DNA of 64,000 nucleotides from the sequence record PV763039.1. One strand, written 5' to 3'. The DNA comes from Escherichia phage WPEC6. Numbering within the stretch: the first letter of the stretch is position 1; each line of letters opens with the position of its first letter. Below are positions 7,794 to 10,862 of this stretch, one piece after another. The position numbers and the translations under genes are program-made. The notes under the pieces were generated by a model. The model saw only the letters and a program-made list of their open reading frames with translations. It was not told the origin of the DNA and searched no databases.

Positions 7794-8189
7794 ATGTGTG
7801 GATATCTTTCAGAAAGTTATTTCAAAGTGACGCATGAGGATTTAGAAAAAGCACGATTGAAACTGACAGCTATTATTGAATACTCTAATACTGTTGATCA
7901 CAGATTAAAGACTACTAAAGTATCTGTTCCTTGTTGGTTAGGTTTACGGCATAAAATAATGTCTCAACATGACCATGTTGTTCGAGAGATGCATGGTTGG
8001 TGTTGGTTTCACGATGTGGCTCTGCATTTTGGTTATATTACAGAAGAAGAGCATAGATTCTGTGAACTAACATATCGTATTCCAACCCTTCACGATTTAG
8101 ATTTGTGGAAGAAAGCAAACGAGATTTTTCTTACAGAAAGTGATTGGCGTAAAGTTATGGCTTGTCTTGAATGGAGGGGTAATGAGTAA
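7794..8189 (+). CDS. hypothetical protein
   Basis: in-frame ATG 7794 after RBS GGAGG (track ORF starts at 7776). Confidence 0.5.
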   Translation: MCGYLSESYFKVTHEDLEKARLKLTAIIEYSNTVDHRLKTTKVSVPCWLGLRHKIMSQHDHVVREMHGWCWFHDVALHFGYITEEEHRFCELTYRIPTLHDLDLWKKANEIFLTESDWRKVMACLEWRGNE

Positions 8190-8865
8190 AACAGTTTTGT
8201 CTATGTTTGACGGATCTGGGATCATGGTGTTACGTTATGCCGAAGCAGGTCACAAGTGTTTTTGTGTAAACGCTGATGAAGGGGATCACGGTAAATACGA
8301 GGTTAGGATGGAGCACCCAAACATAACCTATGTGAATGCCTGGATAGATTCTACATTCAACCCTGAAGATCATGGAATACCTAAACCCGATATTATTTTT
8401 GGATTTCCACCTTGCACTATGTTAGCAGGTAGTGGTAGCAAACACGAACGCAGCACAGAGGAATTGGATGAAGCTTTAGCTAATATTCGTGTAGTGGAAG
8501 CTTTGGGTAACAAATATAATGTTCCTTGGATGATTGAGAACCCAGTAGGTAAACTTTCAACCTTATGGCGTAAACCCGATTTTTACTTTGATCCTTATGA
8601 GTATGGTGGGTATTTGTTTGAAGAGGAAGGAAGCTTTCATCCTAAAATGCCTACCCGTGATGGGTATACAAAGAAAACTTGTATTTGGCACGGCAATGGT
8701 TTTGTTCAACCAGTGAAGAAACCAGTAGATCATATAGGCTGCTTCTGGGGTTGGAAAAGCTTAGGTGGAGCTAGTGCAAAAACAAAACAACTTAGATCAC
8801 TAACCGCACGTGGTTTTGCTCGTGCAGTGTTTTTGTCTAACAATCTTCTAGATAAGGAGAAATAA
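8182..8865 (+). CDS. short DNA (cytosine-5) methyltransferase-like protein (putative)
   Basis: ATG 8182 after RBS GGAGGGG; motifs LSMFDGSG (FxGxG-like), GFPPCTMLAGSG (PC catalytic motif IV-like) and MIENPVGKL (ENV motif VI-like); only 227 aa, so uncertain. Confidence 0.4.
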   Translation: MSKTVLSMFDGSGIMVLRYAEAGHKCFCVNADEGDHGKYEVRMEHPNITYVNAWIDSTFNPEDHGIPKPDIIFGFPPCTMLAGSGSKHERSTEELDEALANIRVVEALGNKYNVPWMIENPVGKLSTLWRKPDFYFDPYEYGGYLFEEEGSFHPKMPTRDGYTKKTCIWHGNGFVQPVKKPVDHIGCFWGWKSLGGASAKTKQLRSLTARGFARAVFLSNNLLDKEK

Positions 8866-9518
8866 TGTCAAATTCAAAACCAGTGGTTGCTTATCAAGTA
8901 GATCGTAATGATGGTGAAGGAAGTGTTGTTATTTTCAGTACACACGGTCTTGAGGCTCGTCGAAAAGGTGCATATCGTTTAGAATGTGAGTTTGAAGACT
9001 GCACAAGCCACCGTGTCAAACAATTCGATCAATATGCTGATAAAGGCTTCGTCCCTATCAAAGCGTTACTGGAAGATGGTTGGTGGGTATATTCTGCTTT
9101 TGATTACTCAAAACTGGAGGAGTCAGCTTCGTGCGCCTCCGAGATCGAATATGATGATTACTATGACACTCTATACCTTCCAGAATGGCTTGTCTTTTCT
9201 CCTGATGAAAGAAGTGTCTGGAAAACGTGGGAAGAAATGGAGAGACATGCGTATAGCATCAATGAAGCTTTAGATCGTAAAGCTTGGTTTATTGAGGCAG
9301 TAAAGGCGGCATACCCCCAATTCTCATTCTGTGATTTCACTGGTGGCCCAGGATACATTACACATACAGCCTCTTTTGAGTTTCCTGGTTCACGTTATAA
9401 GGGTAATGTTTATTGGGACTGGGATGAAAATAAACAACCTTCGGCTCAAGACTTCCGTTGCTATGTTTGTCAAGGCGATCAAGAAGCCCTTGACAAATAC
9501 CTACAAAGTCTGGTATAG
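8865..9518 (+). CDS. hypothetical protein
   Basis: ORF track; RBS AAGGAGA upstream. Confidence 0.55.
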   Translation: MSNSKPVVAYQVDRNDGEGSVVIFSTHGLEARRKGAYRLECEFEDCTSHRVKQFDQYADKGFVPIKALLEDGWWVYSAFDYSKLEESASCASEIEYDDYYDTLYLPEWLVFSPDERSVWKTWEEMERHAYSINEALDRKAWFIEAVKAAYPQFSFCDFTGGPGYITHTASFEFPGSRYKGNVYWDWDENKQPSAQDFRCYVCQGDQEALDKYLQSLV

Positions 9519-9519
9519 T
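9490..9519 (+). promoter_or_regulatory. sigma70-like promoter candidate embedded in gene 3' end
   Basis: TTGACA 9490-9495, 18 bp spacer, TATAGT 9514-9519 overlapping the stop codon. Confidence 0.3.
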
Positions 9520-9534
9520 GCCGATATCTGAACA

Positions 9535-9565
9535 AAGCCTCCTGTTTCAGGGGGCTTTTCTTTTA
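9535..9565 (+). terminator. intrinsic terminator or attenuator hairpin
   Basis: stem AGCCTCCTG / CAGGGGGCT (one G-U pair), TTT loop, T-rich tail. Confidence 0.5.
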
Positions 9566-9576
9566 TAGGAGGGAAT

Positions 9577-10062
9577 ATGTTTCAAGTAAATGTCAATGTG
9601 CATAATAGTTACTCTGATTGTGAAACGTGTGGCTATAATTCATCTAATGTTATTCGTATTAGTGGCGATTTAGGAGAAGCTTCTTTTGGAGAAGAAGCAA
9701 GTTGCTTTAGTGGTATGGATGCAGAATGGAATGATATTGCACATTGGTTAGTGAGCAAACTAAAAGAAAAAGAGAAACCATTTCCTACTCTGCTTGATCG
9801 TTCTCTTGTGGAAGATGCAGGTAAAGCATATGCAGACTATGCGTATGCAGACGGGAAATATTTGGAAGATGATAAGGCTAACCATTTGCTTTATGTTTAC
9901 TATGAAGCTGAATCTGCCTACGATAATTATTACAGCATGTCTAACATCCTACGTCTGTTTGCAGAGTTTGATATTTATTTCGAAGTAGAATTTTCAGAAG
10001 ATGATACTTACGAGTACAATTCTTATGATCCATTTGAGGAGGAAGAATGCCAAGACGAGTAA
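9577..10062 (+). CDS. highly acidic hypothetical protein
   Basis: ORF track; RBS AGGAGGGA; D/E/Y-rich, C-terminal EEEECQDE. Confidence 0.55.
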   Translation: MFQVNVNVHNSYSDCETCGYNSSNVIRISGDLGEASFGEEASCFSGMDAEWNDIAHWLVSKLKEKEKPFPTLLDRSLVEDAGKAYADYAYADGKYLEDDKANHLLYVYYEAESAYDNYYSMSNILRLFAEFDIYFEVEFSEDDTYEYNSYDPFEEEECQDE

Positions 10063-10862
10063 TTTTTGTAAGCGGTGCAGGTTTAAGCGCAGACAGTGGG
10101 ATTCGAACATTTAGAACAGACACAGATAGTGGTCGTGCTTTATGGGAAGAATATGATTTAGAAGAGGTCTGCGATATTGGAGCTTTCCAAGCAGGTTATC
10201 GTGTTAGAACATCTCCAGATCTTCCAGTGGTCGGTGGTGTAGACGAGAACGGTATGGATTTGTATGCCAAAACACACGAATTTTATAACAAAAGACGTGT
10301 TGAGCTTAAAGATGTACAACCTAATGCTGCACATATTCAAATAGCAAAGTGGTTTAAGGAATATCCTAACCAAATAGTAAACTTGACAACAAACGTTGAT
10401 GATCTACTAGAGCGAGCAGGTGTAGACAGAGATTCTGTTATTCACGTACACGGATATCTTCCTGAAGTAGTTTACCGTATGCATCCTGGAGATTACAAAA
10501 CACTGGTAGATATTGGTTACAATAGTATAAACATAGATGATTATAACTGGGTGAAGCCTAATGTTGTATTTTTTGGTGAGGCTGCACCTTTGTATGCAGA
10601 TATGGCTCACTTGTTCGATACTTTGACCATGCAAGATTTGGTTGTAGTAGTAGGATGTTCAAACCAAGTTATCAATTTTAATTGGGAATTATTTCCTGCA
10701 CTTAGTATGGGTACAAAAATGGTTGTAGTTAACCCTGGAGTTAATTACGAAGAAACACTTCTCTATGAAGATCGTGGAGTTTTTGTTTACCGAGAAAAAG
10801 CTGCAACAGCCTTCAGCAATGAAGGTTTCATTAAAATGGTCGAAGACCACTTAAACAAATAA
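10047..10862 (+). CDS. Sir2-family (sirtuin-like) NAD-dependent protein
   Basis: GAGLSADSGIRTFR, PNAAH, TTNVDDLLERAG, VIHVHG, PNVVFFGE and VVVGCS motifs colinear with CobB/Sir2; RBS GAGGAGGAAG; no Zn-ribbon cysteines seen. Confidence 0.85.
   Translation: MPRRVIFVSGAGLSADSGIRTFRTDTDSGRALWEEYDLEEVCDIGAFQAGYRVRTSPDLPVVGGVDENGMDLYAKTHEFYNKRRVELKDVQPNAAHIQIAKWFKEYPNQIVNLTTNVDDLLERAGVDRDSVIHVHGYLPEVVYRMHPGDYKTLVDIGYNSINIDDYNWVKPNVVFFGEAAPLYADMAHLFDTLTMQDLVVVVGCSNQVINFNWELFPALSMGTKMVVVNPGVNYEETLLYEDRGVFVYREKAATAFSNEGFIKMVEDHLNK

Follow-up and report, generated by a model that had tools for sequence, protein, structure and literature searches.

In a 64,000-nucleotide stretch of Escherichia phage WPEC6 (PV763039.1; the whole stretch is called the window below), the gene at 10047-10862 encodes a protein that is, judged by its sequence, beyond doubt a sirtuin, referred to here as Sir2. 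The protein is a typical representative of the phage sirtuins grouped as PHROG 2162 and is already annotated in more than 100 near-identical genomes. Our preferred reading, held tentatively and with slightly less than even confidence, is that Sir2 would act during infection as a protein lysine deacylase dependent on nicotinamide adenine dinucleotide (NAD). An earlier sequence-only reading had called a confident Sir2-family protein at these positions, and profile searches bore this out: PF02146 was the sole Pfam match (E 1.9e-22, 80.5 bits against a gathering cutoff of 24), phrog_2162 aligned over the full length (residues 2-271, E 2.8e-104), and the best solved relative by sequence was E. coli CobB (E 7.6e-19).

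An AlphaFold model built with 45 homologues (mean predicted local distance difference test score, pLDDT, 91.3) predicts the canonical sirtuin fold of a Rossmann domain plus a small domain. When this model was compared with the PDB using Foldseek, CobB (1s5p) was returned first (E 5e-18, template modelling score 0.85 normalised to CobB), followed by Sir2Af1/2, SIRT5, Sir2Tm and SIRT2, all of which are protein deacylases. The motifs GAGxS (10-14), F22-R23, Y80-x-x-R83, T115-N116-V117-D118, FFGE (175-178), GCS (203-205) and N229 could all be located. G10, A11, G12, S14, F22, R23, Y80, R83, R84, N116 and D118 were invariant in the 45 homologues, as were the catalytic H135, G136, F175, F176, E178, G203, S205 and N229, and most of these residues were also invariant in a comparison with CobB and the T5-like, rV5-like and Vibrio nt-1 Sir2 proteins. 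The catalytic His and Asn, whose loss had been named earlier as grounds for dropping the assignment, are both in place (H135 and N116, invariant in the homologues and against CobB). Judged by these residues, the NAD pocket and the catalytic apparatus are intact.

The zinc site is a different matter. Sir2 contains two cysteines in all, C42 and C204, with none between His135 and Lys170, and the four alignment columns that hold the CobB zinc cysteines (C155, C174, C176 and C177) are non-cysteine in all five phage proteins aligned. The three-stranded beta module is still predicted by AlphaFold, with strands at 136-144, 152-155 and 168-173. The zinc cysteines were likewise absent from every phage Sir2 inspected, including those of phi92, SPC35, DrSchubert and nt-1. 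The sequence-only reading was thus right that the Cys4 zinc ribbon is missing, an observation that is not new, having been published in 2016 for KVP40-like phages (PMC5107563).

Comparison with CobB (PDB 1S5P, 6RXJ) showed a shared active site with several departures from it. Both proteins have GAGxS, FR, Y-x-x-R (Y80/R83 aligning with Y92/R95), N-x-D, the catalytic His (H135 corresponding to H147), the FGE loop and a small beta module, similar in length. The Tyr-x-x-Arg pair is typical of CobB/SIRT5-type (class III) sirtuins, in which it binds acidic acyl groups. Besides having none of the four zinc cysteines, the phage protein differs from CobB in reading TNVD for QNID, in carrying an insertion of ~22 residues (47-72) within the helical subdomain, and in its substrate strand, which is GTSGHVYP in CobB and GCSNQVINFNW here, with key positions that vary little or not at all among the phage proteins. 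Against the curated CobB models Sir2 scored 106.3 bits where 243 are required (NF001753), 85.9 where 320 are required (NF040867) and 84.9 where 318 are required (NF001755). Because these scores fall far under every curated CobB cutoff, Sir2 is not a CobB orthologue or equivalog.

The analogy that had been drawn with the Sir2 NAD hydrolases (NADases) of bacterial defence systems did not survive comparison. No PADLOC defence family matched Sir2 at E <= 0.01, and the best matches were CobB, Sir2Af1/2, Sir2Tm, SIRT5 and SIRT2. Defence Sir2 NADases such as ThsA, DSR1/2, SIR2-HerA and pAgo-SIR2 share with it the Sir2 superfamily, the use of NAD+ and the absence of zinc binding, but Sir2 in the window is of the PF02146 type, with a beta module and an FGE loop, and is encoded by a phage. 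In the defence proteins of SIR2_2 type the beta module is absent altogether (PMC12700824). Sir2 is also a single 271-amino-acid domain with no fused or adjacent sensor or partner (SLOG, HerA, pAgo or a large C-terminal domain), its immediate neighbours being orphan genes for proteins of 161 and 90 amino acids. A defence-type Sir2 was therefore rejected, given that no PADLOC model matched and the best fold matches were all deacylases.

Homologues of Sir2 were found in 983 of the 50,697 phage records searched, or about 1 in 50. Carriers include phi92-like/phAPEC8-like, T5-like, rV5-like, Klebsiella Mydo-like and KVP40/nt-1-like Vibrio phages as well as jumbo phages, with identities to the window protein of 96% (phi92), 52% (T5-like), 47% (rV5-like), 37% (jumbo Serratia phage BF) and 36% (nt-1). 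Members of the clade share full-length homology, the cysteine-less small domain and the same invariant residues; what sets the window and phi92-like phages apart is that Sir2 is preceded by an acidic CxxC protein. Skliros et al. 2016 (PMC5107563) described a KVP40-like phage 'Sir2/CobB' (KVP40/phiSt2) without the zinc ligand and with a conserved catalytic His and acetyl-lysine tunnel. The same authors noted the gene in T5 and SPC35 as well and suggested host acetyl-CoA synthetase as a protein that it deacetylates. Iyer, Burroughs, Anantharaman and Aravind (Iyer et al. 2022, PMC9503650) delineated a distinct proteobacterial-phage sirtuin clade, with prototypes in V5, Mydo, SP15 and Serratia BF, and proposed from gene neighbourhoods that it removes RNA 2'-phosphates in the manner of KptA. 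Since the missing zinc ligands were published in 2016, an RNA-repair role was proposed in 2022 and the gene is already annotated, we rate the finding of a zinc-free sirtuin at this locus as already known.

As a deacylase, Sir2 would bind NAD+, cleave off nicotinamide and transfer ADP-ribose to the acyl-lysine oxygen, leaving the lysine deacylated. Its substrates could be acetyl lysines, and possibly succinyl or malonyl lysines, on host or phage proteins, and the Tyr80/Arg83 pair hints at acidic acyl groups besides acetyl. This reading draws on the best sequence and fold matches, all of them deacylases, and on the lack of a match to any defence Sir2 model. Phage proteins have moreover been reported to carry acetyl groups while in the host and to have lost most of them in virions (preprint, bioRxiv 10.64898/2026.04.27.721073), which makes a need for a phage deacylase plausible.

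Several observations weigh against a deacylase. Canonical sirtuins reportedly need the zinc module in order to deacetylate (PMC12700824), and its ligands are gone here. Sir2La might offer a precedent for a zinc-free deacylase sirtuin, but a preprint and reviews gave no confirmation, and it is given no weight here. The altered, clade-conserved GCSNQVINFNW strand may give Sir2 an acceptor-binding groove different from that of CobB, and the scores against the curated CobB models fall far below their cutoffs (106 against 243 and 86 against 320 bits). The Sir2 neighbourhoods of rV5-like and T5-like phages fit the RNA-repair proposal of Iyer et al. Finally, our literature search found no experimental characterisation of any phage sirtuin; it returned genome notes, an in-silico and transcript study and a comparative-genomics paper.

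The main rival is RNA-end repair as proposed by Iyer et al. 2022, in which Sir2, working as KptA/Tpt1 does, would transfer ADP-ribose from NAD+ to the 2'-phosphate that cleavage leaves on tRNA or mRNA. Alongside the phage RNA ligase, Pnk and phosphoesterases, it would thereby finish mending RNA damaged by host nucleases. We regard this as possible but on balance unlikely. That proposal's prototypes fall in one clade with the window protein (47% identity to rV5-like, 37% to Serratia BF), and our inspection confirmed the gene neighbourhoods on which it draws. In the rV5-like phage DrSchubert an RNA ligase, a 116-amino-acid open reading frame (ORF), Sir2 and a MazG-like gene follow in order, with Pnk and phosphoesterase genes adjoining on the other strand. 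In the T5-like phage SPC35, the end of Sir2 is overlapped by an ORF whose DIDG motif, judged by eye, marks it as a probable HAD-type phosphatase. For Tyr80/Arg83, an anionic phosphate could be as good a ligand as a carboxylate, and both the clade-specific VINFNW strand and the loss of the zinc ligands would suit a non-protein acceptor. Likeness to KptA/Tpt1 itself is limited to the proposed chemistry, an NAD+-dependent ADP-ribosyl transfer to an anionic oxygen, and to the RNA-repair context; the folds are unrelated, and we found no sequence or structural similarity between the two.

Gene context in the window's own lineage speaks less clearly for RNA repair. In phAPEC8-like genomes the RNA ligase (48% identity), Pnk (43%), the phosphoesterase (35%) and the MazG-like protein (29%) do have homologues, but in the near-identical phage Mt1B1_P17 these lie ~26-30 kb upstream of Sir2, a distance that reaches beyond the window, so the lineage shows no adjacency. 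No RNA ligase, Pnk, cREC, MazG or HAD/calcineurin-like phosphoesterase gene was found within the transcription unit that holds Sir2. The rV5-like arrangement, in which Sir2 comes after an RNA ligase with a cREC-type ORF, and the T5-like one, in which a probable HAD-type phosphatase follows Sir2, are both absent from the window. In Vibrio nt-1 the annotated genes within ~1.5 kb of Sir2 include no RNA-repair gene; farther out are a MazG-like gene (~3.5 kb upstream) and a metallo-phosphoesterase gene (~3.3 kb downstream). The proposal is also built on gene context alone, and none of the solved sirtuins that matched the model has RNA as its substrate.

A point of annotation concerns the phosphatase-like neighbour in Salmonella phage SPC35. 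SPC35_0095 (5794-6306 of our SPC35 locus, L003) carries the RefSeq label 'Sir2 (NAD-dependent deacetylase)', starts with IFLDIDGVLN, which is typical of HAD phosphatases, and has no similarity to Sir2. Judged by eye, the label is probably an annotation error.

We consider it very doubtful that Sir2 is instead a mono-ADP-ribosyltransferase acting on protein or nucleic acid, or a plain NAD+ hydrolase serving host takeover. Some sirtuins (SirTM, SIRT4/6) do ADP-ribosylate proteins, an activity that Iyer et al. (PMC9503650) consider for some viral sirtuins, and the KVP40 Sir2 was first described with a role in NAD+ hydrolysis (PMC5107563). Against this, the acyl-lysine-type active-site residues are kept, and neither a macrodomain nor any other ADP-ribose-removing partner is linked to Sir2 in its unit. 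NAD+ depletion would also harm the phage, and no NAD+ salvage genes were found among the scanned proteins, which cover part of the window.

The locus is typical of its lineage. Window positions 7700-11300 are 100% identical to Escherichia phages WPEC1, WPEC2 and WPEC4 and 99.3-99.8% identical to many other genomes of Phapecoctavirus (subfamily Stephanstirmvirinae), the phAPEC8-like E. coli myophages of ~150 kb. Several records named as Campylobacter, Acinetobacter or Pseudomonas phages (MG065639, MG065650, MG065656 and similar, OP562383, OR584014) share 97-99% identity with the E. coli phage genes described here, and their host labels or samples are probably wrong. The methyltransferase-like, acidic and Sir2 ORFs have the coordinates given earlier and match annotated genes in near-identical phages; the 217-amino-acid ORF between the methyltransferase-like and acidic genes had been omitted (Table 1).

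Table 1. Features of the Sir2 locus, in window coordinates.
Feature	Position	Strand	Evidence or remark
Terminator-like hairpin, end of upstream unit	6769-6786	+	Terminator annotated at equivalent Schickermooser site
Promoter-like site TTGACA-17-TAAACT, TG-extended	6792-6820	+	Follows hairpin 6769-6786
DUF7277/DUF7275 protein, 313 amino acids, first gene of unit 1	6851-7792	+	PF23940 E 7.5e-76, PF23942 E 1.7e-13, phrog_2141
131-amino-acid protein, phrog_16551, no assigned function	7794-8189	+	8-nucleotide overlap with methyltransferase-like start; 25% identity to phi92 gp044
C5-methyltransferase-like protein, 227 amino acids, phrog_757	8182-8865	+	Motifs I FDGSG, IV FPPC, VI ENP
Acidic 217-amino-acid protein, phrog_8514, no assigned function	8865-9518	+	Start abuts methyltransferase-like stop; 67% identity to phi92 gp041
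Sigma-70 promoter-like site TTGACA-18-TATAGT, 11/12 matches, TG-extended	9490-9519	+	Consensus match only; just upstream of terminator hairpin
Intrinsic-terminator-like hairpin, 11 pairs then T-tract	9534-9558	+	Divides methyltransferase/217-amino-acid ORF unit from acidic-Sir2 unit; annotated in Schickermooser
Acidic 161-amino-acid protein, phrog_9509	9577-10062	+	Alpha/beta domain 1-143, C15-x2-C18...C43, predicted disordered tail 144-161
Putative translational-coupling junction	10036-10062	+	Sir2 Shine-Dalgarno GAGGAGG (10036-10042) and ATG (10047) within last acidic-gene codons
Zinc-free single-domain sirtuin, 271 amino acids, phrog_2162	10047-10862	+	PF02146; key residues conserved
Terminator-like hairpin closing acidic-Sir2 unit	10870-10887	+	Inside 10045-10910 block, 91% identity with phi92
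90-amino-acid protein, phrog_15991, last plus-strand gene, no assigned function	10906-11178	+	47% identity to phi92 gp037

Terminator-like hairpins were enriched across 6500-11600 (10 found, against 3.3 +/- 1.6 in shuffled sequence), and terminators are independently annotated at the equivalent places in phage Schickermooser. Promoter-like sites were not enriched (14 in total, against a shuffle mean of 13.1). The hairpins delimit three units: unit 1 (6851-9518) runs from the DUF7277/DUF7275 gene through the 131-amino-acid and methyltransferase-like ORFs to the 217-amino-acid ORF, unit 2 (9577-10862) holds the acidic ORF and Sir2, and unit 3 (10906-11178) is the 90-amino-acid ORF alone. A bidirectional terminator-like hairpin at 11182-11205 closes the plus-strand block, with converging minus-strand genes beyond it. 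Two further genes on the same strand lie 5-6 kb upstream of Sir2: a lambda/NinI-like calcineurin-type phosphoesterase (3381-4124, PF00149 E 2.7e-13, ~6 kb upstream) and a DprA/SLOG-like protein (4440-5021, phrog_768). In the survey of Iyer et al. (PMC9503650), calcineurin-like phosphoesterases are occasional sirtuin neighbours and SLOG is among the phage NAD/ADP-ribose domains.

Within unit 2, the Sir2 start overlaps the end of the acidic gene by 16 nucleotides. The acidic protein ends F-E-E-E-E-C-Q-D-E-stop, and in its frame the Sir2 Shine-Dalgarno sequence and ATG are read as Glu-Glu-Glu-Glu-Cys; phi92 has the same arrangement with a 13-nucleotide overlap. Because the two genes share a terminator-bounded unit and the Sir2 start is embedded in the acidic gene, they are predicted to be co-transcribed and are probably translationally coupled, forming a two-gene unit with Sir2 as the second cistron. 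Inspection of the overlap by eye revealed no slippery sequence for a programmed frameshift that would fuse the acidic protein to Sir2.

The product of the first cistron had been described earlier as a strongly acidic, Tyr-rich protein whose gene overlaps Sir2, and this description holds (pI 4.05, net charge -27, 23% Asp+Glu, 10% Tyr). Its acidity is not unique in the genome, since five other ORFs share a pI of ~4.05; among the 111 window ORFs it ranks fourth in net charge per residue and first in Tyr content. AlphaFold (mean pLDDT 89.8) predicts a folded domain and a disordered acidic tail, and as modelled the protein is not low-complexity filler. The family is small, with 128 phage records, 9 clusters in a collection of 5.8 billion proteins and 17 clusters among 1.84 billion representatives. 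Only C15, C18, G38, A41 and C43 are invariant among the 19 members compared, and the conserved CxxC...C suggests a metal site. A fourth cysteine, C158, is confined to members with a gene overlapping a Sir2 start; the overlap explains it, because its TGC codon holds the TG of the Sir2 ATG.

The suggestion that the acidic protein is a DNA or protein mimic fared less well. Like the DNA mimics Ocr and ArdA it is small, strongly acidic and encoded in an accessory-gene region of a phage, but unlike them it has the conserved CxxC...C motif, and part of its acidity comes from codons in the tail that double as the Shine-Dalgarno sequence and ATG for Sir2. It had no match in the PDB, in Pfam or to a known mimic, and no fold similarity to any solved DNA mimic.

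Most of the evidence speaks against a tie between the acidic protein and Sir2. By BLASTP it has no homology to the ORFs that flank Sir2 in rV5-like, T5-like and nt-1 phages. In T4-like, jumbo and other phage contigs, the neighbours of four distant relatives are DUF5856, thymidine kinase or NADAR genes, and Sir2 is next to none of the four. NADAR is an ADP-ribose-related domain. In the jumbo phage MT939486.1 (locus L008; 4001-4528 and 5445-5951), the distant homologue stands beside DUF5856 and three genes upstream of the NADAR-domain gene, and DUF5856 is also within three genes of acidic-protein homologues in two other contigs. Adjacency of the acidic gene and Sir2 was seen only in ~150-kb Stephanstirmvirinae-like genomes, including phi92-like phages and a 151-kb metagenomic contig.

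These observations bear on whether the two proteins form a two-component module, in which the acidic CxxC...C protein would be an inhibitor or chaperone of Sir2, a specificity subunit or a zinc module supplied in trans. The predicted co-transcription and coupling through the 16-nucleotide overlap would fit such a module, as would an adjacency that is kept in phi92-like phages despite only 37% identity between the acidic proteins, and also in the metagenomic contig; C15, C18 and C43 are invariant in 19 of 19 acidic-family members, and Sir2 has lost its own four cysteines. Yet ~850 of the 983 Sir2-carrying phage records have no acidic-protein homologue, while every Sir2 inspected is cysteine-less, and the distant relatives of the acidic protein occur away from Sir2. 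Sir2 alleles also swap without the acidic gene, all the adjacent cases come from a single collinear phage subfamily, so that adjacency is weak evidence, and C158 is accounted for by the overlapping Sir2 ATG. We therefore hold a two-component module to be doubtful. Supply of the zinc module in trans was considered separately and judged unlikely, because cysteine-less Sir2 proteins occur in T5-like, rV5-like and Vibrio phages that lack the partner and C158 is forced by the ATG.

A composite proposal would have the zinc-free phage sirtuins, instead of deacylating proteins, transfer ADP-ribose from NAD+ to a non-protein acceptor, for example an RNA 2'-phosphate that a host anticodon nuclease or another nuclease has left behind, as a form of counter-defence, with the acidic CxxC...C protein serving as a regulatory or specificity subunit in the phi92/phAPEC8 lineage. 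We consider this proposal unlikely.

Comparison with related genomes indicates that Sir2 moves on its own. Relative to the window, phi92 has a Sir2 that is 96% identical and an acidic protein that is 37% identical, whereas in MirsaeidiM_Esher1 the acidic protein is the closer of the two (Sir2 68%, acidic protein 97.5%). A DNA block at 10045-10910, spanning the Sir2 ATG through the terminator, is 91% identical to 4478-5341 of the phi92 locus (L006), whereas its flanks are at most 69-76% identical or undetectable. As read from these alignments, Sir2 and its terminator are a self-contained exchangeable module, and the pattern points to a recent exchange between Phapecoctavirus and Justusliebigvirus with one breakpoint exactly at the Sir2 ATG.

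The sequence-only reading had also placed a short C5-methyltransferase-like ORF 1.2 kb upstream of Sir2. Its coordinates (the distance from its end to the Sir2 start is 1182 nucleotides) and its motifs I, IV and VI stood, but it had no match in Pfam, including PF00145, or in NCBIfam. The ORF matched phrog_757, labelled 'DNA methyltransferase', at E 6.7e-85, and its N-terminal part matched weakly to PADLOC C5-methylase models (E 1e-4, residues 1-126) and M.HaeIII (E 0.08). An hhalign comparison with the C5 methylase gp043 of phi92 gave E 8.9e-4, with FDGSG/FDGMSGG, FPPC/SPCQ and ENP/ENV aligned, and D10, G11, S12, G13, P76, C78, E119, N120 and P121 do not vary among 30 homologues. Motifs I, IV (Pro-Cys) and VI (Glu-Asn) thus align with those of C5 methyltransferases such as M.HaeIII, Dcm and phi92 gp043, and many records annotate the family as 'Dcm-like'. 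The window ORF differs from these enzymes in being just 227 amino acids long with its C-terminal 100 residues unmatched: residues 127-227 are conserved within the family, align with no methylase and contain no recognisable target-recognition domain or motifs IX/X. The family profile had no match among PDB sequences at E <= 0.1. The ORF appears to be a relative of the C5 methylases through a link that is weak but consistent.

Of the 1487 phage records with a member of the family phrog_757, most are T1-like, Kagunavirus-like or rV5-like and lack this Sir2 context. In phi92 the place of this gene is taken by another C5 methylase, canonical and of full length, and what is conserved is the syntenic position, not the methyltransferase-like gene itself. 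Another methylase-related ORF in the window, of 169 amino acids (1256-1765, plus strand), matches only positions 206-373 of the 458-position DNA methyltransferase profile phrog_799 and may be a fragment or a minimal domain.

These results tell against the functional cluster that the sequence-only reading had proposed, in which the methyltransferase-like gene, an acidic mimic and Sir2, as an NADase or an agent against NAD-based immunity, would together serve counter-defence or NAD manipulation. All of these genes do lie in an accessory small-ORF region of a lytic phage, the acidic protein combines its net charge of -27 with a predicted disordered acidic tail, Sir2 would consume NAD+ whatever the acceptor, and the lambda-phosphatase-like and SLOG/DprA-like genes are 5-6 kb upstream. 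However, the methyltransferase-like gene and Sir2 sit in separate terminator-bounded units, and the families have independent distributions, with Sir2 in 983 phage records, the methyltransferase-like family in 1487, the acidic family in 128 and the 217-amino-acid ORF family (phrog_8514) in 149. Distant acidic relatives occur without Sir2, Sir2 alleles are exchanged independently, and phi92 has another methylase at the site. Sir2 resembles deacylases and matches no defence model, and the acidic protein resembles no solved DNA mimic by fold and has neighbouring ORFs of comparable acidity. A counter-defence cluster of this kind is highly improbable, and a functional three-gene cluster was rejected on the grounds of the terminators, the independent distributions, the different phi92 methylase and the exchange of Sir2 alone. 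The methyltransferase-like gene, the 217-amino-acid ORF and the acidic protein are Stephanstirmvirinae-specific syntenic neighbours and not one system with Sir2, the acidic protein being at most a lineage-specific accessory.

The window copy adds nothing beyond existing annotation and discussion. The zinc-free sirtuins of this clade are carried by model phages including T5 relatives, rV5 and phi92. If Sir2 deacylates host or phage proteins, as we tentatively prefer, it would give the virus a direct handle on the bacterial acyl-lysine proteome. If it acts in RNA repair, it would represent new sirtuin chemistry and a counter-measure to RNA-cleaving defences. For the design of experiments it may help to know that Sir2 is exchanged between genera as a self-contained module and that the acidic protein next to it comes from an orphan family in which a CxxC...C motif is conserved.

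Other observations in the window concern genes away from Sir2. An HslV-like peptidase (100-792, plus strand, phrog_1040) lies near its start, and a 196-amino-acid ORF (2454-3044, plus strand) matches phrog_4806, labelled 'histidyl tRNA synthetase', with no Pfam match. A serine recombinase/DNA-invertase-like gene (17693-18370, minus strand, PF00239 E 5.4e-18, phrog_125) is present in this lytic myophage. Three small acidic paralogues of phrog_899 stand in tandem on the plus strand at 5776-5973, 6260-6478 and 6488/6533-6760; all of their C-termini read W-x-(P)-S-S-(S/L)-(x)-C, and the middle one has the motif twice (DWQSSSC ... VWHSSSC).

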